DNA of 37,488 bases. It comes from Omnitrophica WOR_2 bacterium RIFCSPHIGHO2_02_FULL_67_20. GTDB taxonomy: Bacteria > Omnitrophota > Gorgyraeia > Aquiviventales > Aquiviventaceae. Below are positions 4,000-32,561 of this stretch, one piece after another; the stretch's first letter is position 1; every line of letters begins with the position of its first letter. The position numbers were made by a program, and so were the translations under genes. The stretch spans positions 1-37,488 of the forward strand of contig MHGT01000032.1 of NCBI GenBank assembly GCA_001805695.1, in the 5' to 3' direction. Below the pieces are notes generated by a model that had not been told where the DNA came from, made no database searches, and saw nothing but the letters and a program-made list of their open reading frames with translations.

Positions 4000-5289
4000 A
4001 TGGAGAGACGACGATTTCCTAGAGTTACAGCATGTCTGCCCGCTCGTTACTGGTTGTCGAGTCAATCTCCATCCGAAAGCCGCCCAGTCTTAATGGAGGA
4101 TATATCTGAGGGTGGTGCGCGACTCTCTACCACTGAACCTTTAATGATTGGACAGAAAATTCGGTTCGTGTTTGATGGAAATCAGTCCCGACAGAGCCTA
4201 TCAGAACTAAGCGGTATGGTCGCGTGGCAGGAAAACATCGTTGACTACTCAAATGGCGATTCAAGGGACACGGGAATAACTTTCGTCCCGAATGACCCAA
4301 TTACTAAGAACAGAATTAAGCAATGGTTGCTAAAAAGAGAAGTGGTCCCACGACCTCAACTCGATGAGGCTGAACCATCAACCCGCATCGAATCGGCGTA
4401 TGACAGTTCGACAGTTACCTTCAAAGTCTTAAGGGCTTTTGGGTGGGGTCCCTTGATTAATCTTGGTTATTTTCGGTTTCCCTCACCTCTTAGCGCGCTG
4501 AACCTGCTATACAATTTCGCCTTTTTGAAGACGGCCAACATGCTGCCAAGAGCACAAGTTCGATTGGCGAGAAAATCCTTCGAGTTCTTAGACATTCAAG
4601 CAGAAGACGACGTCTTAGACATAGCATGCGGAAGAGGGTACGGCTCCTTCATGATGGCCTGTTCATATCCCAAATCAAGGGTAACAGGGATTGATTTGTT
4701 AACTAACCACATCAGAGTCGCTTCCGCTCTCTATGGGAACGTTGGCAATCTAAGATTCAAATACGGTGATGCGCTAAGCCTGCCATTTGAGAGCGTCAGC
4801 TTTGACAAGGTGTTATGTCTAGAGGCGGCCTTTCACTTTGCAGATCGAGGGAGATTTCTCAAGGAAGCTTATAGAGTCTTGAAAGAAGATGGACGGTTAG
4901 TTGTGGTCGACTTTGCGTGGAAGACTGAGGAAGATCGACGGATCCTTGAAGATGAACCCACACGCTTCGTCCGACGTGAGTGGCAATGGGATGATTTTTT
5001 CTCTGTCGGCGAATACCTAAGGTCAGCGACGTCCGTTGGATTTGAAGTTGAAGGATGTCACAAGTGGGGCAGAAAAGTCACAGGTCCGATCCAGTGCATC
5101 TTTAATACCATTGGGGAAGCTGGGCGGTGGAGTTGGAGTCGTACTGTTATCCACCGCTCCAATCCACTGTTGTATAGCTTAACGGACAACGACTGGGCAA
5201 ACCTCCGTTACTCTGCCAGGGCACATAACTATGTTCGACGCCACGTTGAGTACCTAGTGCTTGTTCTAAAAAAGACGAGCGGTAAGTGA
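4000..5289 (+). CDS. PilZ domain fused to a class I SAM-dependent methyltransferase
   Basis: AAGGAG-6 nt-ATG at 4000. PilZ motifs: RRFPR (RxxxR) and DISEGG (DxSxxG). Methyltransferase motifs: VLDIACGRGYG, VTGIDL, DKVLCLEAAFHF, LKEDGRLVVVDF. Low-GC codon usage. Confidence 0.85.
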   Translation: MERRRFPRVTACLPARYWLSSQSPSESRPVLMEDISEGGARLSTTEPLMIGQKIRFVFDGNQSRQSLSELSGMVAWQENIVDYSNGDSRDTGITFVPNDPITKNRIKQWLLKREVVPRPQLDEAEPSTRIESAYDSSTVTFKVLRAFGWGPLINLGYFRFPSPLSALNLLYNFAFLKTANMLPRAQVRLARKSFEFLDIQAEDDVLDIACGRGYGSFMMACSYPKSRVTGIDLLTNHIRVASALYGNVGNLRFKYGDALSLPFESVSFDKVLCLEAAFHFADRGRFLKEAYRVLKEDGRLVVVDFAWKTEEDRRILEDEPTRFVRREWQWDDFFSVGEYLRSATSVGFEVEGCHKWGRKVTGPIQCIFNTIGEAGRWSWSRTVIHRSNPLLYSLTDNDWANLRYSARAHNYVRRHVEYLVLVLKKTSGK

Positions 5290-6452
5290 AAACTTCAGTG
5301 CCAAGACCCATAGAACGGACAGCACTCGTTACGGGAGGAACCGGCTTGCTGGGTCCCTGGCTAGTGCACGCTTTACTAAACCAAGGGTATCGAAAAATTT
5401 TTGTTTTGGCTAGGGCAAAGGGAAAAACTTCTGCGGAGAATCGGGTATCCGAGGCACTAAAATTTTGCAGAAACGGGAGAGAAATTAGAGGGGCAGACAA
5501 GACAGTTCAAGTGGTGTGCGGTGATATTTGTGAACCCAACCTAGGTTTGTCGCTCCAATTACGTAACGATCTCTTACGACAAATCACAGATATTTTTCAT
5601 ACCGCAGCACGAACCGACCTAAACGCTCCTCTCAACGCTCTTCGCCTCCCCAACGTCGTAGGAGCAGAGAATGTATTTAGACTAGCTTTGCATGGTAGTC
5701 AGCTAAACGGCCACACAATTCGCGTCCATCATGTTAGTAGTGTCACCGTTGCTGGCAATTTGCAGGGATGGTTTTCAGAAAGTCAATTTAGTTGCAGCCA
5801 GCGCTTTCACAATGCATATGAGCAGACCAAGTTCGAGGCGGAACAACTCGCCCTGGAATACAGAAACAAAGGTCTGAACGTTGCAATTTACAGACCAGGA
5901 ATTATCACGGGTGATTCTGTTCGCGGTACCACAAGTGGTTTCAAGGTGATTTACCAGCCTTTACGGTTCCTGGCGCATAATTTGTTTAATGAGTGGCCTG
6001 CGCGTGAGGATGCGCCGCTCTCCTTGGTGCCAGTTGATAAAGTTGCTGAGGCGCTTTGCCTTCTTTCTTGGGTTGAGTATCCATTGCGAGGGGCATGGCA
6101 TCTGGTCAATCCCGAAGATACTACTTTGGGAAAATTAATTGATGTAGGAATACAAGTGTTTGGGTGTCACAGGCCTGCCCTGATCCCGGCGGAGCATTTC
6201 AACAAATCACGATTCTCTCTTACTCAGTGGCGGCTAATTGGACCGTTTGTTCCGTACTTGAACTACCGCGTAAGATTTAGTTCAAGCTATACGAAAGAAG
6301 TATTAAACAAAGCAGGATTTAAATGGCCGAAGATGGATAGTGGCATGCTGGGAAAGTTGTATCGGTACTGCGGCAATTCAGGCTTCATTCGGCCACGCTC
6401 TATAGTTCCCGCTCGGAAGACGTTTTCCTCAATATTTGGAAGAACCAGATGA
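5286..6452 (+). CDS. Stand-alone thioester-reductase / fatty-acyl reductase-type extended SDR (NAD_binding_4-like)
   Basis: GTGA start/stop overlap with the upstream gene. ALVTGGTGLLG Rossmann motif, IFHTAA, VHHVSSVTV, YEQTKFEAE (YxxxK), AIYRPGIITGDS, SLVPVD. Low GC. Confidence 0.75.
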   Translation: MKTSVPRPIERTALVTGGTGLLGPWLVHALLNQGYRKIFVLARAKGKTSAENRVSEALKFCRNGREIRGADKTVQVVCGDICEPNLGLSLQLRNDLLRQITDIFHTAARTDLNAPLNALRLPNVVGAENVFRLALHGSQLNGHTIRVHHVSSVTVAGNLQGWFSESQFSCSQRFHNAYEQTKFEAEQLALEYRNKGLNVAIYRPGIITGDSVRGTTSGFKVIYQPLRFLAHNLFNEWPAREDAPLSLVPVDKVAEALCLLSWVEYPLRGAWHLVNPEDTTLGKLIDVGIQVFGCHRPALIPAEHFNKSRFSLTQWRLIGPFVPYLNYRVRFSSSYTKEVLNKAGFKWPKMDSGMLGKLYRYCGNSGFIRPRSIVPARKTFSSIFGRTR

Positions 6453-8584
6453 ACACCTTTGCTTTTTCCGGGCTCTTAACCAGTTTAGCGAGTCTCGGTA
6501 TTGGCGCGTGGGTCTATTTCAGCAACCGAACCAATTGGCTTAATCAGCTATGGAGCATGTTCTGCATCACGGTCGCTATCTGGGGACTTGGAGGGTTGCA
6601 AATTGGCCTAGCTTCAAATTCAGAAACGGCGTTGCTTTGGTGGCGCATAACCTATGTTGCCGTGATCCTCATACCCTCAATTTTTTATCACTTTGTCATC
6701 GTGTTTCTTGGAATTCGGCGTCCCATTACAGTCATCCTCGGATACTTACTAAGTTCCGGATTTTTAATCACAGATGCGACCCCCTTACTTATTGCGAACG
6801 TAGACAAAATTTTTAAGAATCTCTACTACGTCACTAAGCCAGTAGGGGTCGCCTATCCTGCGTTTGTCTTATTTTTTATCGGCATGGTTGTCCTAAGCCA
6901 TGTCGAGCTATGGCGGTACATGGGGAGGACAGCTGGTAATAAGCGTCGGCTCCAAGTTAGATGGTTTTTTTTAGCAGGTATTGTTGGATACATTGGGGGT
7001 ATTTCTTGTTTCCTTCCCGTCTTCGGGTTCAAGCTATATCCATATGGCAACTTCACAGTTCCTTTATTTCCTATTTTCCTGAGCTATGCCATCTTTCGTT
7101 ATCAACTTATGGACATCGAAGTTATTATCAAGCGGACCCTGGTGTTTGCGGGGCTTGTGGGATCCGTGGTGGCGGTGGTGGCGTCGATGGCGTTCGTCAC
7201 GCAGGATCTGCTGGCGCGATTCGTGGCGACGCCCCGGTGGCTCTCGAACGTGCTGGCGGCGATGGTCATCGCCGGGGTGTATGGCCCGCTGCGCAACTGG
7301 CTGGTGAACGTGACGGACCGGTTCCTCTTCCAGAAGAAGTACGACTACAAGGAGCTGCTCAAGAAGTTCACCGACGACGTGATGGTCATCGTGGACTTGA
7401 AGCAGCTGCTCCAGACGACGGTGACGACGCTCTCCGATACGGTGAAGCTGGAGAGCTGCAGCCTGCTGCTGCTGAACAAGGACACGCAGACGTATGAGCT
7501 GGCCGCCTCGCGCGGGACGAACGGCCGCCGGCTGGCGCTGGACGAGCAGGAGCCGTTCATCCGGTTCTTCCGCGAGACCCATGAGCCCATTGGCCTGGAT
7601 GGCTCGCTGGGGCAGGTGCGTTTCCCGGAGGCGGTGACGGGGCGCCTCAAGGAGCTCAACGCGCGGCTGTGCCTGCCGCTCCATCTCCATGAGGACCTCA
7701 TCGGCGTCCTGTGCCTGGGCAAGAAGAAGTCGGACGAGGAGTTCACGAAGGACGACTTCGACATCCTCCTCCCCCTGGCCCGCACGCTGGCGATCGCGGT
7801 GAGCAACGCCCAGCTCTTCGACGAGCTGGCCAAGACGCAGGCCGAGGCGGCGCAGAGGGAGAAGCTGGCCGTCATCGGCACGCTCTCCGCCGGCATCAAC
7901 CACGAGATCTGCAATCCCCTCGGCATCATCAAGGCGCAGTGCGAGGCGTTCCTGATGGACCTGGAAGACGGCATCCTCATCGGCAAGTCGCCGAGCGACC
8001 TGCTCAACCGGACCTCCTCCATCCTGCAGGTGGCGCTCAAGCAGATCGACCGCGCGACCGCCATCACCCAGAAGCTCTCCAACTTCGCCAAGCCCATCAA
8101 GGACCCCTCGATCCAGCCGGTGTCGGTCGAACAGGAGGTGGGGGAGGTGCTCCTGCTGGTCGGCCACGACCTCACGCTGGAAAAGATCGCCTTCGAGCAG
8201 GAGATCCCGCCGGATCTGCCGTCCATCACCGTGGACCGCCGCCAGTTCCAGGAGGTGCTCTTCAACCTCATCCGCAACGCGGCGCAGGCCATCACGCCGC
8301 CGGGGACGATCCGGGTGAGCGCGCGCGCGCACGAGGACGGCCGGGTCCGCATCGAGATTGAGGACAGCGGCAGCGGCATTCCCCCCGACAAGCTGGGCAA
8401 GATCTACGACCCCTTCTTCACGACGAAGGAGCCAGGCAAGGGCACCGGCCTTGGGCTCTTCATCGTCCGCCAAATTGTGGAACGCAATCGAGGGCGGATC
8501 GCGGTGGAGAGCGCGGTGGGGAAGGGGACGGTATTTTTTCTCGACTTTCCGGTGGCACGAGAGGTTCCCGCCAAGGCGGGGTGA
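6449..8584 (+). CDS. Multi-pass membrane sensor histidine kinase (7TM-type N-terminus + GAF + HisKA + HATPase_c)
   Basis: ATGA overlap with the upstream gene. About 9 hydrophobic helices, with a FRYQLMDIEV motif after helix 7. GAF-like KLESCSLLLLNKDTQTYELAASRG...LCLGKKKSDEEF. H-box LSAGINHEICNPLGI. NLIRNAAQAI, DSGSGIPPD, GTGLGLFIV. Confidence 0.9.
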   Translation: MNTFAFSGLLTSLASLGIGAWVYFSNRTNWLNQLWSMFCITVAIWGLGGLQIGLASNSETALLWWRITYVAVILIPSIFYHFVIVFLGIRRPITVILGYLLSSGFLITDATPLLIANVDKIFKNLYYVTKPVGVAYPAFVLFFIGMVVLSHVELWRYMGRTAGNKRRLQVRWFFLAGIVGYIGGISCFLPVFGFKLYPYGNFTVPLFPIFLSYAIFRYQLMDIEVIIKRTLVFAGLVGSVVAVVASMAFVTQDLLARFVATPRWLSNVLAAMVIAGVYGPLRNWLVNVTDRFLFQKKYDYKELLKKFTDDVMVIVDLKQLLQTTVTTLSDTVKLESCSLLLLNKDTQTYELAASRGTNGRRLALDEQEPFIRFFRETHEPIGLDGSLGQVRFPEAVTGRLKELNARLCLPLHLHEDLIGVLCLGKKKSDEEFTKDDFDILLPLARTLAIAVSNAQLFDELAKTQAEAAQREKLAVIGTLSAGINHEICNPLGIIKAQCEAFLMDLEDGILIGKSPSDLLNRTSSILQVALKQIDRATAITQKLSNFAKPIKDPSIQPVSVEQEVGEVLLLVGHDLTLEKIAFEQEIPPDLPSITVDRRQFQEVLFNLIRNAAQAITPPGTIRVSARAHEDGRVRIEIEDSGSGIPPDKLGKIYDPFFTTKEPGKGTGLGLFIVRQIVERNRGRIAVESAVGKGTVFFLDFPVAREVPAKAG

Positions 8585-22716: not shown

Positions 22717-22721
22717 AGTTG

Positions 22722-23063
22722 ATGCCTCTACTTGCTAATGTCTATTTGCTCAAAGATTTAGCGCGGTTGAGCGGCCATTCCATTCACACCGTGAAGTTTT
22801 ATCTCAGGCGCGGGCTCATTCAAGAAGCGGGCCGAAGCCCGGAGACGCGCTTCCGCTATTTCGACGACGCCACCCTCGCGACCCTCTCCACGATCCGCAC
22901 GTTGCGCAAGCAGCGCAAGAGCCTCTTCGAAATTCAGCACTTCATCAACCATAACGGTTCGGAGTTCGCCCGCCCCGGCACGCCGGGTCGGGCCGGGGGA
23001 GTTCGCAGTTCCGAGCAGTTACCCCCAGCCCCGAGCCCCGAGCCTCCAGCTGCACCCCGATGA
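22722..23063 (+). CDS. MerR-family HTH transcriptional regulator (short)
   Basis: YLLKDLARLSGHSIHTVKFYLRRGLI...RYFDDATLATLSTIRTLRKQ is a MerR N-terminal HTH pattern. The start is ATG 22722 or TTG 22719. The last ~34 aa are encoded by a repeat element. Confidence 0.7.
   Translation: MPLLANVYLLKDLARLSGHSIHTVKFYLRRGLIQEAGRSPETRFRYFDDATLATLSTIRTLRKQRKSLFEIQHFINHNGSEFARPGTPGRAGGVRSSEQLPPAPSPEPPAAPR
22955..23044. repeat. Degenerate member of the GTTCGGA / CCCCGAG heptamer-palindrome family
   Basis: cggttcggagttcg ... gggagttcgcagttccgagcagtt acccccagccccgagccccgagcc, lying in the 3' end of the MerR-like ORF. Confidence 0.5.
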
Positions 23064-23896
23064 GTTACTACACGGTGCTCGGCCTGACGAGAGAGCCGTT
23101 CTCGACGAGCCCGGACCCCGCCTTCTTCTTCCGCTCCAGCTCCCACGTGCAGGCGCTGGCGCGCCTCGAGATCGCCATTCGGCTGCGGCGCGGGCTCTCG
23201 CTCATCCTCGGCGACGTGGGGACCGGCAAGACGACGCTGGCCCGCACGGTGCTCTCCGCCTTCCCGCAGGAGGACGGCTTCGCCTTCCACATGGTCCTCG
23301 ACCCCTCCTTTGAGTCGGAGTACCAGTTCCTCTACCAGCTGACGCGGATGTTCGGCATCCAGTCCCAGTGCAAGTCCACCCTTGACTGCCGGGAGGCGAT
23401 CGAGCACCACCTCTTCCAGAGCGGCGTCCTCGAGGGGAAAACGACGGTCCTCATCATCGACGAGGGCCAGAAGCTCTCCTTCGACATGCTGGAAAATCTC
23501 CGGATGCTGCTCAACTACGAGACGAATGAGTTCAAGCTGCTCCAGGTGGTGATCTTCGCGCAGATGGAGCTCCTGGGACGCCTCGCGCGCGTGACGAACT
23601 TCATCGACCGCGTGGCGCTGAAGTACATCATCAACCCGCTCAGCGAGGAGGAGACGGCGGAGATGATCCAGTTCCGCCTCCGCTCCGCCGGCCTGCCCTA
23701 CGGCCGCGGCCTCTTCTCGAGCGAGGCCGTGTCGGTCATCCACCGCTTCACGCAGGGCTATCCCAGGCAGATCGCCCTGCTGTGCCACAACGCGCTGGAA
23801 TCGATGGTGATCCACGACAAGTCGGTCGCGGACGCCGCGCTCGTCGAGGAGCTGATCCGCCATGAGTCCCGATGGCTTCGCGAAGCCGCCGCCTGA
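23060..23896 (+). CDS. ExeA/GspA-like AAA ATPase
   Basis: ATGA overlap with the upstream gene. YYTVLGLTREPFSTSPDPAFFF, Walker A GDVGTGKTT, Walker B VLIIDEGQ, GYPRQIALLCHNAL. Confidence 0.85.
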   Translation: MSYYTVLGLTREPFSTSPDPAFFFRSSSHVQALARLEIAIRLRRGLSLILGDVGTGKTTLARTVLSAFPQEDGFAFHMVLDPSFESEYQFLYQLTRMFGIQSQCKSTLDCREAIEHHLFQSGVLEGKTTVLIIDEGQKLSFDMLENLRMLLNYETNEFKLLQVVIFAQMELLGRLARVTNFIDRVALKYIINPLSEEETAEMIQFRLRSAGLPYGRGLFSSEAVSVIHRFTQGYPRQIALLCHNALESMVIHDKSVADAALVEELIRHESRWLREAAA

Positions 23897-24491
23897 AGAA
23901 AAGCTGCTGAAGCTCATCCGGGGCAAACCCGCCCGGTCCGCCACCGAGGCCGCGGCGTTCCCGCGCCCCGGCCAGCTCATGACCGCCTCCAGCCAGGCGG
24001 CGAAGGCCCGGGTCTTCCGCTCACCCGCGCGCGCGCCGGGATGGCCGACGATCGCCATGTGCGTGTTGGGGGCGTTCCTGGTCGTCGAAGTCATCGTGCT
24101 TATCGTCCAGGTGCTCCGCCCGCTGCCACCGGTGCTGCTGCCGGTCGAAGCGGCGGCTTCGCTGCCGGTAGCACTCCCGTCCCCTCACGAGCTGCCGTCG
24201 CTCAGCGCCAGCGTGCCCAGGACCGTCTTCGCGCCGAGCGCCGCGGCACCGGCGACAGGCGCCGCAGCCGCCCCGCTCAGCACATCGACCAAGCTCCTCG
24301 CCGCCCGCCTGACGCTCATGGGGATCGTCGCAGGCGACCCGCCGCAGGCGATCATCGAGGACTCCGAGACGAAGAAGACGTTTTTCGTGACCGCCGGCCA
24401 GATGGTGATCGAGGACGCCGTTGTCGAGCAGGTGCTGGACAGCCGCGTCATCCTCACGGTGGCGGGCGAAAAAATCGAGCTCTCGTTGTAA
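23862..24491 (+). CDS. GspC-like / PilP-like bitopic secretin-interacting protein
   Basis: One TM (IAMCVLGAFLVVEVIVLIVQVL), a Pro/Ala-rich linker, and a C-terminal HR-type beta domain (LTLMGIVAGDPPQAIIEDSETKKTFFVTAGQMV...VILTVAGEKIELSL). Confidence 0.6.
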   Translation: MSPDGFAKPPPEEKLLKLIRGKPARSATEAAAFPRPGQLMTASSQAAKARVFRSPARAPGWPTIAMCVLGAFLVVEVIVLIVQVLRPLPPVLLPVEAAASLPVALPSPHELPSLSASVPRTVFAPSAAAPATGAAAAPLSTSTKLLAARLTLMGIVAGDPPQAIIEDSETKKTFFVTAGQMVIEDAVVEQVLDSRVILTVAGEKIELSL

Positions 24492-24493
24492 GC

Positions 24494-26398
24494 ATGCCTC
24501 CAAAGCCGCCGCTCGGTTCAGGGTTCAGGGTTCAGGGTTCAGGGCAGACCGGTTCGCCCCGAACCCCGAACCCCCAACCCCCAACCCTTGCGAGTCTCGG
24601 CCTCGTGCTGCTCTTGCTCGGTGGAGCGGCAGGGCGGCTGATGGCGCAGCCGCCCGCGCCCCCGGTTCAAGAGGGACCGATCCGCGCCGGAGGGCGCATC
24701 TCGCTGGATCTTAAAGGCGTGGACATCCTCGATGTGCTCAAGCTGCTCTCCCAGAAGAGCGGGCTGAACTTCATCGCCGGGCGCAACGTCACGGGCCGCG
24801 TGACGATCTTCGTCGACGACGTGGACGTGTGGGACGCCTTCGAGCTCATCATCGGCGCCAACGATTTCGCGTATGAGCGGCGCGGCGACATCGTGACGGT
24901 GATGATGGCGCGCGACTACGAGCTCCTCTACGGGGAAAAGTTCCAGGTGCGCACCCAGACGCTCATCCAGCCGCTGAAGTACGCGAAGGGCTCGCCCGCC
25001 GCCGCCGTCCTCAACCAGATCAAGTCCTCCATCGGCCGCGTGGTGGTCGATGAGGCGACCGCCACGCTTATCCTCACCGATGTGCCGGCGAAGCTCGTCG
25101 AGATGCAGGGCGTCCTCAAGGAGCTCGACCGGCCGACCAAGACCCGCGTCTACAACCTCAACTACGCCGACGCGGAGAAGCTCAAAGAGAAAGTCCAGGA
25201 GCTGCTCTCGCCCGCCGGCACCTTCACGTTCGACACCCGGACCAACAAAGCGGTGGTCTCGGATCTCGAAGAGGTGCTCACGAAGGTGGACCGGATCGTG
25301 CGGGCGTTCGACGCCCCGGACGGCCAGGTGCTGATCGAAGCCAAGATCGTCAAGGTCGACCTCACCGACCAGATGGACCTCGGCATTGACTGGCAGCAGG
25401 TGTTCGCCGGCATCGACATGCAGACGCGCGGCAACTTCCGCGTGCTGAGCGACATCGTCGGCGGCGCCGCGACCGGCGGGGCGCTCAAGCTGCTGACGGC
25501 GCCGAAGGGAAACACGCAGGTCATCATCGAGGCGCTGAAAAAAATCACGAGCACCGACACGCTCTCCAGCCCCCGCATCATGGTCTCGAACAACCAGGAG
25601 GCGAAAATCCTTGTCGGGACCAAGGAGGCGGTCGTCACCGTGACGACGACCGTGCCGGCGACCGGCTCCACCGTCTCGGCGCCGGAGATCCAGTACGTGG
25701 ATGTCGGCACCAAGCTCTTCGTCACGCCGAGCATCAAGCGGGACGGCCACATCCAGCTCAAGGTCCGCCCCGAGGTGAGCACCTCCAAGGTCGAGACGTT
25801 CCAGACCAACCGCATCCCTATTGTGACTTCGACGGAGGCCGAGACAAACGTGCTCGTGAAGAGCGGGGTCACGCTCATCATCGGCGGCCTCATCGAGCAC
25901 AAGGACGAGCGGACGGAAAACCGCGTGCCCGTGTTGGGTGACATGCCCATCATCGGGGCGGCGTTCCGGGGCTCGACCGACTCGAACCGAAAGACCGAGC
26001 TGGTCGTCTTCCTGACCCCCCAGATCATCATGCCCGACGGCTCCGCCTATGCCGACAGCCCCCAGCCGTCGCCGGTCATCGAAGAACTGGAATCGAACGG
26101 CGGCCGCGCCTCGTCGCTGCCGCCCGCGTACCGTCAGGCGGTCCGCCGGCATCTGCAGGAGCGGTTGACCGACCGGCTGCGGCAGGCGTCGCTGCCGTCC
26201 GGCTCAGTGATCGTATCGTTCACGCTGGGGCGGGAAGGGCGGCTCATCGGCGCTCAGCAGATTATCAGCTCCGGGGGCGATGCCTTCATCCGGGCGGCCG
26301 CGGAGGCGCTCCAGCAGGCCGAGCCGTTCCCGCCGTTCCCGCAGGATTCGCCGGCGCATGAGGTCACGTTCCGGCTCGCCGTCGACTACACCCCGTAA
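24494..26398 (+). CDS. gspD: Secretin (GspD/PilQ family) with a C-terminal TonB/TolA-like domain
   Basis: N0-like: ISLDLKGVDILDVLKLLSQKSGLNFI. Secretin_N repeats: VYNLNYADAEKLKEKV. Secretin core: LSSPRIMVSNNQEAKILVG...RVPVLGDMPIIGAAFRG...ELVVFLTPQII. A C-terminal extension follows (see findings). Confidence 0.9.
   Translation: MPPKPPLGSGFRVQGSGQTGSPRTPNPQPPTLASLGLVLLLLGGAAGRLMAQPPAPPVQEGPIRAGGRISLDLKGVDILDVLKLLSQKSGLNFIAGRNVTGRVTIFVDDVDVWDAFELIIGANDFAYERRGDIVTVMMARDYELLYGEKFQVRTQTLIQPLKYAKGSPAAAVLNQIKSSIGRVVVDEATATLILTDVPAKLVEMQGVLKELDRPTKTRVYNLNYADAEKLKEKVQELLSPAGTFTFDTRTNKAVVSDLEEVLTKVDRIVRAFDAPDGQVLIEAKIVKVDLTDQMDLGIDWQQVFAGIDMQTRGNFRVLSDIVGGAATGGALKLLTAPKGNTQVIIEALKKITSTDTLSSPRIMVSNNQEAKILVGTKEAVVTVTTTVPATGSTVSAPEIQYVDVGTKLFVTPSIKRDGHIQLKVRPEVSTSKVETFQTNRIPIVTSTEAETNVLVKSGVTLIIGGLIEHKDERTENRVPVLGDMPIIGAAFRGSTDSNRKTELVVFLTPQIIMPDGSAYADSPQPSPVIEELESNGGRASSLPPAYRQAVRRHLQERLTDRLRQASLPSGSVIVSFTLGREGRLIGAQQIISSGGDAFIRAAAEALQQAEPFPPFPQDSPAHEVTFRLAVDYTP
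24515..24587. repeat. Heptamer-array palindromic element (GGTTCAG x4 / CCCCGAAC-CCCCAAC arm)
   Basis: Four perfect GGTTCAG units at 24515-24542. The right arm is ccccgaaccccgaacccccaacccccaaccc at 24557-24587. The element lies inside the secretin 5' coding region. Confidence 0.8.
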
Positions 26399-27296: not shown

Positions 27297-30200
27297 ATGC
27301 GCGTTAAAAAGTTAGAAATTTTCGGGTTCAAGTCGTTCGCCCACAAGACGGTCATCCACTTCGAGCCCGGGGTGACCGCCATCGTCGGGCCGAACGGGTC
27401 CGGCAAGTGCGTGCATGGGGACTCCCGCGTGGTGCTGGCGGACGGGCGGGTTGTTCCAATCAAGGAGCTTGTGGAAGAAGCGCTCCGGGATGCCGGCCGC
27501 ATCGAGGATTGGGATGATGGGCAGGCGACGCACGACAATCCTTATGGCCTGCGCGTCTTGTCCCTCAACCCGGCTTCCCTCAAGGTTGAGCCGCGTCCGA
27601 TCACCGCGTTCATCAAGCGCACCGCTCCCGCCATACTCTACCGCATCGTGACCCGGACGGGCCGTGAGCTCGTCGCGACCGGCTACCACCCGCTCTTTAC
27701 ACTGGACGGCGGCGCGCTGAAGAGCCTGCCGGCCGACCAACTGCGGCTCGGGATGCGGATCGCCATTCCCCGCACGCTGCCCGTGTCGGGCGCGAGCGAT
27801 GCGCTGGACCGTGCGGCGATCTTCAGTCGGTTTAGTCGTGGCGATTCCGTCTACGTCCCGCACTCGCCAGCGCTGGAACAGTGGGTGAATCACATCAGCG
27901 AACGAGGTGGCGGGTTGGCCGCCGTCGCGCGACGCGCCGGAATCGAGCGGGGCCATGTGAGCATGGTGCGACAGGGACAAGCTGTCAATGCGGCGACCGT
28001 CAGCCGGCTCCAGACATGGTCGCAGGACGGGGGCGATGCGTCGGTCGGCACGGTCCTGCAAGCGAGCCGGGGCGCCAAGGCCGCCATGACCATCCCTTCG
28101 CGGATGACTCCAGCGCTGGCCAGGTTCCTGGGCTACTGCATTTCCGAAGGACAGAACACCTCGGCGAACCAGGTGTGGTTTGTGAATAGCGACCCAGCGC
28201 TAGTGGAGGATTTTTGCCGTTGCGCCGCCGAGACCTTCGGGGTGCGGCCGCGAGTGCTGTCATATAAGCCCAACGCGAAGGACGTACTGGTGTTCTCCCA
28301 CGCGCTCTGCCTGTACCTCGAGAAGGCTTTTGGATTCGCCGTGGGTCAACTGTCCGCTGAGAAGCAAGCGCCGGACGTCGTGCTGGGCGCGTCGGAGGAA
28401 TGCGTGCGCGCGTTCCTGTCGGCCCTGTTCGAGGGGGATGGGCACGTAGCGATGAAGATGCGCGCCGGCAGGACGATCGCGTACGTCGAGTATGCGACGG
28501 CGAGCCACCGGCTGGCCGATGACGTCTGTCTGCTCCTGCTCCGATTCGGCATTGTGGGTCGGATCGCCACCAAGCGAAAAGCGGCCACCAATACCCGGCA
28601 TCGTGTGGTTCGGACGTATTACAGCGTGATGATCTACGGGGTGGAACAGCTCACACGACTGGCGGAGGTCCTTGAGTTTCGAGGAGAGAAGCGGCGCGCG
28701 TTGGAGTGTCTCCGGTTGCTCAACCAATCGCCCAACCCGAACGACGATGTGGTGCCGGGCGTGACCCCGTTGGTGAACGCCCTGGTGCGTCAGGCCGGAC
28801 TCTCGGTCAAGCGGCTCCGGAAGGAGCATCCGACCTTAGCCGCCTACTACGAAGGACGGTGTGAAGCGACTCGCCCGGGTATTAGACGAGTACTGGACGC
28901 CGTTCAGCGGTTGGGTCGCGGCGGCCCCGAGGTCAGCACACTCTGCGAGCGGCTCCGGCTTCTAGCGGAGTCTGACGTGTATTGGGACGCCATTGCCAGC
29001 ATCGAACCGGTTCGCGGAACAGAGTGGGTGTATGACCTGACGGTGGACGGCTACCACAACTTCATTGCCAACGGCATGGTGGTGCATAACAGCAACATCG
29101 TCGACTCGATCCGCTGGGTGCTCGGCGAGCACAACCCGCGCGACGTCCGCGCCCCCCGCCTCGAAGACGTCATCTTCAACGGCACCGACAAGAAGGCCCC
29201 GCTCTCCATGGCGGAGGTGCACCTCACCATCGCCAACGAGCAGGGGCTCCTGCCGATCGCCTTCACCGAAGTGACGATCACCCGCCGCGTCTACCGCTCC
29301 GGCGAGAGCGAGTGCTTCATCAACCAGAGCCCCTGCCGGCTGAAGGACATCCAGGAGCTCTTCCTCGGCACGGGCCTCGGCGGCGGCACGTACGCCATCA
29401 TCGAGCAGGGCCACATCGACCTGATCCTCTCCTCGAAGCCGGAGGAGCGCCGCATCGTCTTCGAAGAGGCCAGCGGTGTGGCCAAGTATCTCGCGAAAAA
29501 GCGTGAGACGATGCGCCGGCTCGACGAGGTCGAAGAGCACCTCGTGCGGATCGCCGACATCATCGCAGAGGTCCGCCGGCAGGTCGCCGCACTGGAGCGC
29601 GCGGCGAACAAGGCCCGCCAGTACAAAACGCAGTGGGAGCAGCTGAAACAGCTGGAGCTGCGGCTCGTCGTGGATGAGCTGGGCTCTGGCCAGACGCGCG
29701 ACCAGGAGCTCGAAACACGGGTGCGCGCGCTCCAGGCCAAGCGGGACGAGCTCGAAGCACAGAAGCAAACGCACGTCACGTCGCTCGAAGCGGCCAACGC
29801 CGCGGTCTCGGCCATCGCCGGCAGGCTCCAGGAGCTGCGCACGCAGGCGGTGACCTCCGCCAGCGAAGTCCAGCAGCACGACGGCCAGCTCGCCCTCAAG
29901 ACGCGCTGGATCGAAGAGCTCGCGCAGCAGGTCCAGCAGGCCGAGGCCGAGGCGGTCCAGCTGCGCGAGCGCACGACCCAGCTCGACGAGCAGCTCGCCC
30001 GTGTGGGCGGCGCCGAGGCCGAGGTGGCGGCACAGCTCTCCGCCGTCGAGGAACAGGCCCATCAGGGCGGCGGCGAGCTGGCCGCGCTCGAGGTCGTGCT
30101 GCAGTCGGCGCTCGAAACGCTCGAAACGGCCAAGGCCCAGCTCTTCGACGCGGCCTCCGAGGCCTCGCACCAGCGCAACCGGCTCGCCGGAGCGGCCTCG

Positions 30201-32561
30201 CGGCTCCAGGGCGTGGAGGCGCACGTCAGCCGCCTCGAGGCCCAGCGCACCCAGCGCACCGCGCACGCCGACGAGCTGCGCCGCCGCAGCCAGGCCGCCT
30301 TCGACGAGCACGCCGCACTGCAGCGCGCCTGCGACGAACTCAGGCGCCGCCTGACGACGGCGCAGGAGCTGCACGACGCCGCGTCGGCCAGGCGCCATGA
30401 GCTGACCGGACGGCTCCACGAGCTGCGCGACCGGCTCGCGGGTGAGCGCGCCCGCGCGGCGCTGCTCGAAGACCTCTGGCACCGCTATGAAGGGTTTCCC
30501 GACACGGTGAAGACGCTCATGAGCCGGCAGGTGGACGGGCTCATCGGCCCGCTTGTGGATCTCGTGCAGCCCGCTCCCGGCTACGAAGAGGTCGTCGAGG
30601 CGGCCCTCGGGCCGCTCGGCGAGGCGCTGGTCGTGCGCGACCGCCGGGCGCTGTCCCGTTGCCGGGAGCTGCTGAATGAGCAGGGGCTGGAGGGCTGCCG
30701 CTTCCTCGTCCTCTCGGACTGCCCGCTCGCGCTGGCGATGGAGCCGGCCGGTTCGCAGGAGGGGGTCGCGGGCGCGGTGAAACAGTACGTGCGCGCCGAG
30801 CCCGAGTACCAGCCGCTGGTGGACTGGCTGCTCAACGACTCCTGGGTCATCGACGACATCCAGCGGCTGCTCGGCCAGGCCCGGCCGCCGCAGGGACGGC
30901 TGGTGAGCCAGCGCGGCGAGCGGTGGGACCGCCGCTCGTGGCGCTTCGGCCGGACCACCCGCGCCTCCGCCTCCAGCCGGTTTGGGCGCAAGCAGCGCTG
31001 GGAAGCGGGCCAGGCGGTACTTCAGGCCTTGGAAGAAGAGTTCCGTCGCGTCGAAGCCGACTCCCGCGAGGCGGAGCAGGCTTGGCAGGCGCGCCTGAGC
31101 GAGCAGGAGGCGGCGAAGGGACAGGCGGCCCACACAGCACCCGCTCTGCACAAGCTGGACGCGCAGGCGATGCAGCTTGCGCGCGAGCTGGAGCGGCTTG
31201 ACGAGGAGCAGCGCGCCTGCGAGCTGGAGGCGGGGGACCTGACGGCCCAGCGCGAGGAGCTGTGCCGCGAATCGGCGCAGACCGAGCGGGCAGTGCAGGA
31301 GGCGCAGGAGCGCCAGCGAATACTCGAGCGCGCGCTCGGCGATGCGCAGGCCGCGCGCGAATCCTCGGAACAGCGCCGCCAGCAGCTGCTCATCGCCCGC
31401 GCACAGGTCGAGTCCTCTCGGCAGTCGCTGACGGAGCGCCGCGACGCGCTGCGCGCTCGCCGCGCCGAGCTTGACGCGGACAAGGCCGGGCTGTTGCAAC
31501 AGCTCGAATCCAGGGTCGCCCGGCGGCAGGACGTCCTGCGGCGCTCCGAAGAGCTCAGCGGGCAGCTCGAGGAGCATCGCCAGGCGGTCCAGCGCCTCAC
31601 CGAGGAGCGGAGCCGGCTCGACGCCGAGGCGGAGGCCGTCAGCCAGACGCTCAACACCGAAGAGGCGACGCGGGACCAGCTCCTGCCGCATCTCTTGGCC
31701 GCGGAGCAGGAGCTCTCGACGCTGATGCGCCAGCTCCAGGAACAGGCCCAGCAGCTCTCCGAGCGGACGTACCGCCGCACCCACCTGGTCGAGCGGCTGC
31801 GGGAGCTCTATCAGATCGACCAGACCGCCATTGACGCGGAGCGCCAGGCCAACCCGCCGCCGCTCACCGACGAGCAGCGCGCCCAGGCGTCCGAGCAGGT
31901 CCAGAAGCTGCGGGCCAAGCTGGAGGGGATCGGTCCGGTGAGCCTGGGATCGGTGGAAGAGTACGACGAGCTCAAGCGCCGCCTCGACTTCCTCCAGACC
32001 CAGCAGCAGGACCTCGTCCAGGCGCGGGACGATCTCAAAACCTCCATCACGCAGATCAACCGCACCGCCCGCACCCAGTTCCGCGAGACGTTCGAGCGGA
32101 TCAAGCAGGAGTTCCAGCACTACTACACCCGGCTTTTCGACGGCGGTGAAGCGAACCTCATCCTCCTCGACGAGGAGGATGTGCTGGAGTCCGGCATCGA
32201 CATCGTCGCCCGCCCGCCGGGGAAGCGTCTCCAGAGCATCAGCCTCCTCTCCGGCGGCGAGCGGGCGATCACAGCCGTGGCACTCCTCTTCGCGCTCTTC
32301 AAGGTGCGGCCCTCCCCGTTCTGCATCCTGGATGAGATCGATGCGCCGCTCGATGAGGCCAACGTGGACCGCTTCACCCGCGTGCTCGAGGAGTTCCTCA
32401 CGCTCTCCCAGTTCATCCTCGTCACGCACAACAAGAAGACGATCACCAAAGCCGACTCGCTCTACGGGGTGACGATGGAAGAACCCGGCATCTCCAAGAT
32501 CCTCTCCGCCAAGCTCACCCCCAGCCGCCCGCCCAGCTCGACCGTCCCCGTCGCGGCCTGA
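27297..32561 (+). CDS. smc: Chromosome partition protein SMC, interrupted in frame by an intein
   Basis: MRVKKLEIFGFKSF...GPNGSGK|intein|SNIVDSIRWVLGE. Hinge GLIGPLVDLV, signature LSGGERAITAVALLFAL, Walker B FCILDEIDAPLD. 1754 codons in total, 1193 without the intein. Confidence 0.95.
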   Translation: MRVKKLEIFGFKSFAHKTVIHFEPGVTAIVGPNGSGKCVHGDSRVVLADGRVVPIKELVEEALRDAGRIEDWDDGQATHDNPYGLRVLSLNPASLKVEPRPITAFIKRTAPAILYRIVTRTGRELVATGYHPLFTLDGGALKSLPADQLRLGMRIAIPRTLPVSGASDALDRAAIFSRFSRGDSVYVPHSPALEQWVNHISERGGGLAAVARRAGIERGHVSMVRQGQAVNAATVSRLQTWSQDGGDASVGTVLQASRGAKAAMTIPSRMTPALARFLGYCISEGQNTSANQVWFVNSDPALVEDFCRCAAETFGVRPRVLSYKPNAKDVLVFSHALCLYLEKAFGFAVGQLSAEKQAPDVVLGASEECVRAFLSALFEGDGHVAMKMRAGRTIAYVEYATASHRLADDVCLLLLRFGIVGRIATKRKAATNTRHRVVRTYYSVMIYGVEQLTRLAEVLEFRGEKRRALECLRLLNQSPNPNDDVVPGVTPLVNALVRQAGLSVKRLRKEHPTLAAYYEGRCEATRPGIRRVLDAVQRLGRGGPEVSTLCERLRLLAESDVYWDAIASIEPVRGTEWVYDLTVDGYHNFIANGMVVHNSNIVDSIRWVLGEHNPRDVRAPRLEDVIFNGTDKKAPLSMAEVHLTIANEQGLLPIAFTEVTITRRVYRSGESECFINQSPCRLKDIQELFLGTGLGGGTYAIIEQGHIDLILSSKPEERRIVFEEASGVAKYLAKKRETMRRLDEVEEHLVRIADIIAEVRRQVAALERAANKARQYKTQWEQLKQLELRLVVDELGSGQTRDQELETRVRALQAKRDELEAQKQTHVTSLEAANAAVSAIAGRLQELRTQAVTSASEVQQHDGQLALKTRWIEELAQQVQQAEAEAVQLRERTTQLDEQLARVGGAEAEVAAQLSAVEEQAHQGGGELAALEVVLQSALETLETAKAQLFDAASEASHQRNRLAGAASRLQGVEAHVSRLEAQRTQRTAHADELRRRSQAAFDEHAALQRACDELRRRLTTAQELHDAASARRHELTGRLHELRDRLAGERARAALLEDLWHRYEGFPDTVKTLMSRQVDGLIGPLVDLVQPAPGYEEVVEAALGPLGEALVVRDRRALSRCRELLNEQGLEGCRFLVLSDCPLALAMEPAGSQEGVAGAVKQYVRAEPEYQPLVDWLLNDSWVIDDIQRLLGQARPPQGRLVSQRGERWDRRSWRFGRTTRASASSRFGRKQRWEAGQAVLQALEEEFRRVEADSREAEQAWQARLSEQEAAKGQAAHTAPALHKLDAQAMQLARELERLDEEQRACELEAGDLTAQREELCRESAQTERAVQEAQERQRILERALGDAQAARESSEQRRQQLLIARAQVESSRQSLTERRDALRARRAELDADKAGLLQQLESRVARRQDVLRRSEELSGQLEEHRQAVQRLTEERSRLDAEAEAVSQTLNTEEATRDQLLPHLLAAEQELSTLMRQLQEQAQQLSERTYRRTHLVERLRELYQIDQTAIDAERQANPPPLTDEQRAQASEQVQKLRAKLEGIGPVSLGSVEEYDELKRRLDFLQTQQQDLVQARDDLKTSITQINRTARTQFRETFERIKQEFQHYYTRLFDGGEANLILLDEEDVLESGIDIVARPPGKRLQSISLLSGGERAITAVALLFALFKVRPSPFCILDEIDAPLDEANVDRFTRVLEEFLTLSQFILVTHNKKTITKADSLYGVTMEEPGISKILSAKLTPSRPPSSTVPVAA
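27408..29090 (+). mobile_element. Class 1 intein with a LAGLIDADG homing-endonuclease domain, inserted in the SMC Walker A motif
   Basis: Cys1 (CVHGDSRVVLADGRVVPIKEL), block B TGYHPLF, LAGLIDADG motifs LARFLGYCISEGQ and FLSALFEGDGHV, blocks F/G VYDLTVDGYHNFIANGMVVHN, then +1 Ser. 561 codons. Confidence 0.9.

Follow-up and report, generated by a model that had tools for sequence, protein, structure and literature searches.

Systems differ in how they target, assemble and fix their secretins in the cell envelope, with pilotins, GspAB and AMIN or LysM partners all in use, and outside the Proteobacteria this is largely obscure. The C-terminal domains (heads) of TonB and TolA always function in the periplasm, and their normal anchor is an inner-membrane helix bound to ExbB/ExbD. 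These heads bind their partners by β-strand addition (PMC12204202). Type II secretion system (T2SS) secretins are 15-mers, and those of proteobacteria are anchored to peptidoglycan by GspB/OutB (10.1101/2021.08.06.455404). ExeAB is linked to peptidoglycan anchoring and assembly of a proteobacterial secretin (PMC4098917), and LysM and AMIN modules serve this role in the type IV pilus system (PMC5285504). The DNA studied here, a stretch of 37,488 nucleotides (contig MHGT01000032.1, called the window throughout), comes from Omnitrophica WOR_2 bacterium RIFCSPHIGHO2_02_FULL_67_20. Omnitrophota are ultra-small, host-dependent bacteria. The window contains a complete type II secretion-like operon of a Candidatus Omnitrophota bacterium, and we find that its GspD-type secretin carries, in place of the usual pilotin-binding S-domain, a flexible tether and a predicted head of the TonB/TolA type. 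The secretin is laid out as follows.

24497-24646, + strand: probable start and signal peptide (MPPKPP...LLLLGGAAGRLMA, followed by QPP), from sequence reading and homologue comparison
24695-24931, + strand: N0 (STN-like) domain, AlphaFold2 elements E19-H97 in the 585-aa form; conserved more than any other part of the protein
24956-25309, + strand: two secretin N domains that build the ring, one N1-like and one N3-like (Pfam Secretin_N, AlphaFold2)
25325-26029, + strand: secretin core, with the outer-membrane barrel and its gate, up to ...ELVVFLTPQII (Pfam Secretin PF00263)
26030-26119, + strand: flexible tether (MPDGSAYADSPQPSPVIEELESNGGRASSL), disordered, rich in Pro/Ala/Glu/Ser, at the S-domain position
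26120-26395, + strand: TonB/TolA-type C-terminal domain, with a long helix, β1, β2, a helix, a PFPPFP loop and β3 (VTFRLAVDY)

Translation of 26030-26398 gives MPDGSAYADSPQPSPVIEELESNGGRASS, then LPPAYRQAVRRHLQERL...VTFRLAVDYTP and a stop codon, exactly the peptide quoted in an earlier note on this DNA. That note had the open reading frame (ORF) running about 120 aa beyond ...ELVVFLTPQII, through a Pro/Ser linker and then a terminal domain of about 93 aa with the pattern of TonB_C or TolA domain III. All of this holds: the tail past the secretin core comprises 122 aa in the same ORF, divided into a 30-aa disordered tether rich in Pro, Ala, Glu and Ser and a 92-aa domain. We modelled the tail with AlphaFold2 (AF2), both in isolation and within a full-length model that was built on a 585-aa form of the protein from 117 sequences. 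Across both models, the tether has predicted local distance difference test (pLDDT) scores of 34-52, and residues 473-490 drop to 34-39 in the full-length model.

The identity of the head is supported by sequence profiles and by its predicted fold. The earlier note had named two outcomes that would overturn its reading, the lack of a significant TonB/TolA-family match and a predicted structure without the α-β TonB_C fold; both checks came out in favour of the reading. In Pfam scans, for which the whole protein was taken as 633 aa, TonB_C (PF03544) matched residues 568-632 with 34.8 bits, or 38.2 bits when the tail was scanned alone (cut-off 24.6). TonB_2 (PF13103) matched residues 544-626 with 29.5 and 32.6 bits, respectively (cut-off 22), covering positions 3-84 of the 85 in the profile and thus spanning it end to end. 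The NCBIfam profile TIGR01352 (tonB_Cterm) gave 37.8 bits for the whole protein and 40.6 bits for the tail (cut-off 27.1), so that all three profiles score above their curated cut-offs. A profile of 23 tails, searched against the PDB, matched the C-terminal domain (CTD) of Helicobacter pylori TonB with E = 1.6e-5. Judged by these profile comparisons, the match of the tail to TonB_C, TonB_2 and tonB_Cterm is well beyond chance.

In the AF2 model of the 122-aa tail, the first 30 residues are disordered and residues 31-120 have pLDDT values of 86-89. The ordered part forms a helix (32-52), two strands (58-67 and 77-80), a second helix (84-97) and a last strand (111-120), which is the α-β fold of TonB/TolA C-terminal domains. 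The same helix-strand-strand-helix-strand order is seen in the full-length model, where the head reaches pLDDT 89-95. Top Foldseek matches to the tail model were the CTDs of HasB (2m2k), of H. pylori TonB (6sly, 5lw8) and of Pseudomonas aeruginosa TonB (6fip), the BtuB:TonB complex (2gsk) and the TolA CTDs 4g7x, 2x9a, 3qdp and 1tol. Their probabilities are 0.84-1.0 with E-values of merely 2e-3 to 8e-2, which are modest partly because the model contains the floppy linker. Sequence and model together place the head in the TonB/TolA C-terminal domain superfamily, with the fold and sequence family of the TonB, HasB and TolA CTDs (Pfam clan of PF03544, PF13103 and PF06519; 2m2k, 6sly, 5lw8, 1tol, 2gsk). 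The long helix at the head's N-terminal end is similar to those in HasB, H. pylori TonB and TolA domain III, and the SSG...PFPPFP pattern of the head fits TonB_2. Because of the end-to-end TonB_2 match and this long helix, the domain is as TolA-III-like as it is TonB-like, and we name it a TonB/TolA-type head.

The whole protein is neither a TonB nor a TolA, since the N-terminal motor-binding helix that defines them is missing; it is a secretin with a TonB-type head. We found no transmembrane (TM) anchor or ExbB-binding helix in it: it begins with a probable cleavable signal peptide, after which come the secretin domains, and the barrel is its sole membrane anchor. Unlike in TonB, HasB or TolA, the head hangs from an outer-membrane β-barrel protein. 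An N-terminal TM helix, a motor-binding motif and, in this clade, a long rod across the periplasm are all missing, and no exbBD or tolQR neighbours were found among the scanned ORFs of the window. The earlier note had called such a topology unusual. This is correct for the membrane, which is inverted (the anchor is the outer membrane, via the barrel), but not for the compartment, as the head still lies in the periplasm, where TonB and TolA heads always act.

The remainder of the protein is a secretin. Pfam Secretin (PF00263) matched residues 346-511 with 153.6 bits (E = 5e-45, cut-off 27.5), and Secretin_N matched two stretches (best stretch 216-277) with 71.4 bits (cut-off 28.2). In the AF2 model, these N domains are β-α-β-β-α units at residues 106-162 and 167-223 of the 585-aa form. 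The N0 domain scored below cut-off with both relevant profiles (STN, residues 90-135, 20.8 bits versus 28.4; GspD N0, residues 70-126, 19.8 bits versus 27); its fold was modelled at pLDDT 84-90 and is matched by N-terminal GspD/XcpQ structures in Foldseek. The best structural matches to the secretin body were PulD (6hcg), ExeD (6i1x) and GspD (5wq7/5zdh), with E = 1e-20 to 1e-23. Like these proteins and EpsD, it combines N0, ring-building N domains and a secretin barrel, and, as with other T2SS secretins, its gene comes last in a gspE-F-G-H-J-K-L-M-C operon. The GspD equivalog profile TIGR02517 gave 244.5 bits against a cut-off of 351.35, and PilQ (TIGR02515) gave 242.8 bits against 284.35. 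The protein is therefore a secretin in a T2SS context by fold and gene neighbourhood, not a curated GspD equivalog.

It also differs from classical GspD in its domains. It has one N domain fewer, with two Secretin_N units, and its S-domain is replaced. No S-domain helices appear between the barrel and the TonB-type domain in the full-length AF2 model, in which residues 464-493 are disordered; according to this model, the pilotin-binding S-domain is absent and the tether and head occupy its position.

To gauge how widespread the extension is, we searched with the tail, with the full-length protein and with the operon. A tail-restricted, word-indexed search returned 28 full-length secretins of 455-657 aa, several of which bear the NCBI name 'TonB C-terminal domain-containing protein [Candidatus Omnitrophica bacterium]'. 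The full-length search returned 1252 matches. The best 120 of these share 57-100% identity and are 585-660 aa long except for three of 550-571 aa, and the named sequences among them are all from Omnitrophica or Omnitrophota. In an alignment of 117 of the best 120, at 57-92% identity, every relative retains the head to its last strand; Tyr583 is conserved in 115 and is Asn in the other 2. Mean top-residue frequency, our conservation score, is 0.90 for N0, 0.81 for the secretin core, 0.68 for the head core and 0.42 for the tether, whose spacing from Pro460 to Tyr497 is 24-52 aa (median 36) and which is rich in Pro, Ala, Glu and Ser throughout. The last strand of the head (EVRFRLAVEY) is highly conserved, which is compatible with β-strand addition but not diagnostic of it. 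This pattern of sequence conservation indicates that the head is under purifying selection.

Surveying a single genome for each GTDB species gave 37 loci, with taxonomy taken from the submitters' record titles. Nearly all are metagenome-assembled genomes (MAGs) of Candidatus Omnitrophota, and 29 of the 37 encode the secretin with its head. In Omnitrophota, secretins of this family thus carry the extension as a rule. About 25 loci share the gene order gspK, pilMN, gspM, merR, exeA-like, gspC-like, gspD::TonB_C, SDR, smc. More distant relatives (39-41% identity, including Candidatus Omnitrophus fodinae) are 700-838 aa long and have a weaker TonB_C-like end, preceded in the three longest by a linker of about 200 aa. 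One of them (L030) scores 24.3 bits with TonB_2; three others (L032, L034 and L035) score 14-19 bits with TonB_C, below the cut-off. Some loci were labelled 'uncultured Planctomycetales' by their submitters: L006, L008, L010, L011, L013, L022-L024, L029 and L037 carry the Omnitrophota-type operon and were deposited under that name or as 'Planctomycetales bacterium'. These names are probably taxonomic labels of convenience.

The head has also been reused in other proteins of the lineage. An exhaustive search of 1.84 billion representative proteins with a head profile gave 1892 matches at E <= 1e-3. Among the best 150 of these are a secretin with three tandem TonB_C domains (P0136, 851 aa), further secretin fusions, and proteins with 2-5 tandem heads. 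One of the latter, P0144 (560 aa, with a cluster member of 1183 aa), is a 'TonB family protein' of Candidatus Omnitrophica; it and P0145 consist of three to five tandem TonB_C/TonB_2 domains with no other recognised domain. P0154 joins TPR repeats to TonB_2. P0165 represents a second secretin lineage, in which most relatives are about 420 aa long and tail-less and a subset of 500-723 aa carries TonB_C. The head has evidently been multiplied as a module. A different module is found at the equivalent position in a Bacillota MAG, presumably from a diderm Firmicute: in its secretin (L036:5641-7518), a linker of about 140 aa with many Thr, Ser, Pro, Ala, Gln and Val residues leads to two C-terminal LysM domains, which bind peptidoglycan. 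By analogy, this shows that the C-terminus of a secretin can be a workable site for an envelope anchor.

The genes upstream of the secretin, all on the same strand, form the T2SS-like operon.

14530-16218, + strand: GspE (Pfam)
16296-17564, + strand: GspF (Pfam)
about 17600-20601, + strand: pseudopilins GspG/H/J/K (Pfam)
20574-22016, + strand: PilM-PilN/GspL-like fusion (Pfam, NCBIfam PilM)
ORF listed from 21961, to 22668, + strand: GspM (NCBIfam GspM)
22719-23063, + strand: MerR-family regulator, inside the operon between gspM and the exeA-like gene (Pfam MerR_1)
23060-23896, + strand: ExeA/GspA-like AAA ATPase, soluble, 278 aa (Pfam AAA_22, 77 bits)
23862-24491, + strand: GspC/GspB-like inner-membrane protein (Pfam T2SSC, 28.7 bits; alignment of 23 orthologues)

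The MerR-family gene is syntenic in about 25 of the species-representative loci. The ExeA/GspA-like ATPase resembles TIGR03015 (177 bits, under the cut-off), is 65-80% identical across loci, which makes it the best-conserved accessory gene of the operon, and consists of essentially the AAA domain alone. Aeromonas ExeA additionally bears a periplasmic peptidoglycan-binding domain. The 278-aa protein would lack such a domain, which would leave room for the secretin tail to supply the envelope contact. The neighbouring GspC/GspB-like protein has a conserved cytoplasmic N-terminus, a TM helix (24048-24116), a variable linker and an HR domain. Because both the ATPase and this N-terminus (MSPDGxxKPPPEEKLLKLIRGK) are strongly conserved, the two proteins suggest a GspA-GspB-like pair. 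Within the otherwise variable linker, the motif ELPSLSASVPRTVF at 24189-24230 follows the consensus (E)(I/L)PSLAxSAxRPLF in 23 orthologues and may be a short linear binding motif. Downstream of the secretin lie a short-chain dehydrogenase/reductase (SDR) or enoyl reductase gene and then smc. A six-frame domain-profile scan of the window and all 37 loci revealed no TonB_C ORF other than the secretin.

What could a TonB-type head do on a secretin? We hold, with moderate confidence, that the heads are passive modules for docking or anchoring in the envelope rather than energy transducers. As known from GspD structures, the core of a secretin terminates on the barrel's outer, periplasmic face, which is the site of the S-domains. 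From this geometry and the 15-mer state of T2SS secretins, the channel would carry a skirt or ring of up to 15 TonB-type heads just under the outer membrane. There, they would hold the pore fast or in place within the envelope, or aid its assembly without a pilotin; likely contacts would be an exposed β-strand of a partner or the cell wall. A transducing role is disfavoured because the protein offers no inner-membrane helix to couple with an ExbBD/TolQR motor. A passive anchor is favoured because heads of this type bind strands, because proteobacterial secretins need separate anchors, because LysM domains take the analogous position in the Bacillota secretin and because the ExeA-like ATPase is reduced to its AAA domain. 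The domain identity, the T2SS context, the lack of an S-domain, selection on the head, its spread and its modular reuse in the lineage all support this reading. The position of the tail and its tethering also fit the role of the periplasmic GspB/OutB, ExeAB, PilQ AMIN and TsaP/FimV LysM anchors, which attach a secretin to the cell wall or the platform and help it to assemble. Those anchors use peptidoglycan-binding folds (PG_binding_1, AMIN, LysM) or are separate proteins, whereas here the module is a TonB-type head, whose role we infer.

Some points weigh against a docking or anchoring role. The full-length AF2 model has a predicted template modelling score (pTM) of 0.44; it shows how the domains follow one another and that the tether is disordered, but not whether the head docks on other domains. 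The head is also not indispensable among the species representatives: one secretin has no head (L031), and another (L019:130-1833) stops 62 aa past the barrel with no TonB_C downstream in any frame, and is a natural loss of the tail.

Alternatively, the head could act only in biogenesis, as a built-in substitute for a pilotin with no role in the finished machine, by binding an outer-membrane lipoprotein, a Bam or Lol component or a neighbouring subunit for targeting and multimerisation. The head sits exactly where the S-domain would be, the ExeA-like assembly ATPase is conserved beside the secretin, and pilotin-independent secretins that need ExeAB are known (PMC6532946). No pilotin-like gene was recognisable between gspC and the downstream SDR gene, but small lipoprotein pilotins are hard to detect and the gene search covered that interval. 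The occurrence of the same domain type in tandem arrays and in non-secretin proteins points to a general ligand rather than to a secretin-specific chaperone, and we regard this explanation as rather unlikely.

A specific coupling function is also conceivable, in which the head captures a short β-strand motif and thereby links the pore to the inner-membrane platform or recruits substrates from the outer-membrane side. Candidate ligands are the motif ELPSLSASVPRTVF in the linker of the GspC-like protein, the secretin's own N0/STN domain and an N-terminal strand of the secreted proteins. β-strand addition is the canonical binding mode of the fold (PMC12204202), and a contact between TonB3 and PilQ's N0 domain has been suggested (PMC5285504). 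In this operon, a short conserved motif does lie within an otherwise variable periplasmic linker of the adjacent protein, and N0 resembles the signalling domain of TonB-dependent transducers. However, conservation of the GspC-like motif is moderate, and its designation as a ligand of the head is speculation from sequence. The mature N-terminus before N0 is not conserved, and a tether that measures 24-52 aa in this clade and about 200 aa elsewhere does not suggest a fixed geometry. We therefore judge specific coupling unlikely. A 'TonB box' within the secretin itself was considered and rejected, given the unconserved N-terminus before N0 and the fact that a DIVTVMMA-like segment is a strand within the N0 fold of the AF2 model rather than a free one.

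A broader, 'Rosetta stone' version of the binding idea holds that TonB/TolA-type heads are natural ligands of secretin machines, binding N0/STN or a connector strand of the GspC/PilP type, and that Omnitrophota would have turned this into a tethering system of inverted topology that is used across the lineage and anchored in the outer membrane. Such a system would comprise heads on at least two kinds of secretin, in one to three copies, together with free multi-head proteins. We consider this reading quite unlikely. Were it true, it would account for the need for TonB3-PocAB and TonB2 in proteobacterial type IV pili and competence, and it would define a new class of outer-membrane-to-envelope tether.

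Energy-dependent gating, in which an ExbBD/TolQR-type motor pulls the heads directly or via an adaptor so that the proton-motive force opens or remodels the secretin, is very unlikely. Elsewhere, this domain family serves force transduction exclusively, and some proteobacteria require TonB paralogues for pili or competence (PMC5285504; PMC8811193). Like PocAB-TonB3 of P. aeruginosa and TonB2 of Acinetobacter baumannii, described in the same sources, the present case links a TonB-type head to a secretin-based machine; unlike those separate, motor-coupled inner-membrane proteins, the head here is fused covalently to the secretin. Neither a TM anchor nor an ExbB-binding helix is present in the secretin, which begins with a signal peptide, and a head hanging from the outer membrane on a floppy linker cannot pull. 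No ExbB, ExbD, TolQ or TolR gene, and no gene for a TonB-dependent transporter, was found among the scanned ORFs of the 37-kb window; the syntenic loci were compared only with the window's operon proteins and the TonB_C profile, and no ExbB/ExbD search was made there. Finally, an assembly error or frameshift joining a secretin gene to a separate tonB-like gene has nothing in its favour except the unusual architecture and can be set aside, because the same continuous ORF recurs in 117 independent protein clusters and in 29 species-representative assemblies from many studies, with no intervening stop, start or TM segment.

A literature search found no description of a secretin-TonB_C fusion in the papers it retrieved. 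A paper on the evolution of TolA and TonB mentions neither secretins nor Omnitrophota (PMC12204202), and a preprint on Omnitrophota genomes notes only 'TonB-domain content' beside secretion genes. Complete Omnitrophota genomes are available, including 176 in one preprint (10.64898/2026.06.07.730766). The architecture is already present, auto-labelled and unremarked, in NCBI and JGI records, where some names mislead. P0091, a 615-aa secretin of this kind, is called 'energy transducer TonB' by NCBI, a misnomer driven by the C-terminal domain, since the N-terminus of this secretin design consists of a signal peptide and secretin domains and offers no motor-docking TM helix; users of these annotations should be aware that some such secretins carry that name. 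The exchange of an S-domain for a TonB/TolA head is Omnitrophota-wide and involves a domain regarded almost solely as the tip of inner-membrane force transducers. It provides a natural case of a TonB-type head without a motor and a candidate for the physical connection that may underlie a puzzling trait of some pilus systems, their need for TonB paralogues. A head on a secretin is a surprising design for specialists of either family; its ligand and function are what we infer.

The start of the secretin gene deserves comment. The longest ORF around it on the + strand is 24041-26398, whose initial 152 codons lie over the upstream gspC-like gene in a different frame. The earliest start after the stop codon of that gene (24491) is ATG 24497, which yields a 633-aa product whose N-terminus ends in ...LASLGLVLLLLGGAAGRLMA, followed by QPP, a plausible signal peptide. 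Homologues begin with MRR and a hydrophobic signal peptide that ends in Ala, followed by Gln, at the matching position. As read from the sequence, the other in-frame starts (GTG 24605, TTG 24614 and ATG 24641) leave little or no signal peptide. We chose ATG 24497 because it alone provides one, and the gene is most likely 24497-26398. Public gene calls start at ATG 24641 and give a 585-aa protein (P0003) without a signal peptide.

The 5' leader of the gene, 24515-24587, is a simple repeat: four GGTTCAG units come first and C-rich CCCGAAC/CCCCAAC units after them. Should ATG 24497 be the start, translation of this repeat would give the signal peptide's n-region (GSGFRVQGSGQTGSPRTPNPQPP), unlike the ordinary MRR leader of the homologues. 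No inverted repeats were detected in the leader at a seed of 7, and by eye the complementarity between the GGTTCAG and CCCGAAC runs is imperfect. The base composition of the window is GC-rich, at about 0.65-0.70.

Two further features of the window lie outside the secretin gene. The P-loop of smc (27297-32561) is interrupted by an intein at about 27408-29090 that contains a LAGLIDADG homing endonuclease (Pfam Intein_splicing, LAGLIDADG_3). A block of low GC content at 4000-7000 (0.47 versus about 0.65) encodes a PilZ-methyltransferase fusion, a Male-sterility-type reductase and the seven-transmembrane (7TM) head of a histidine kinase.

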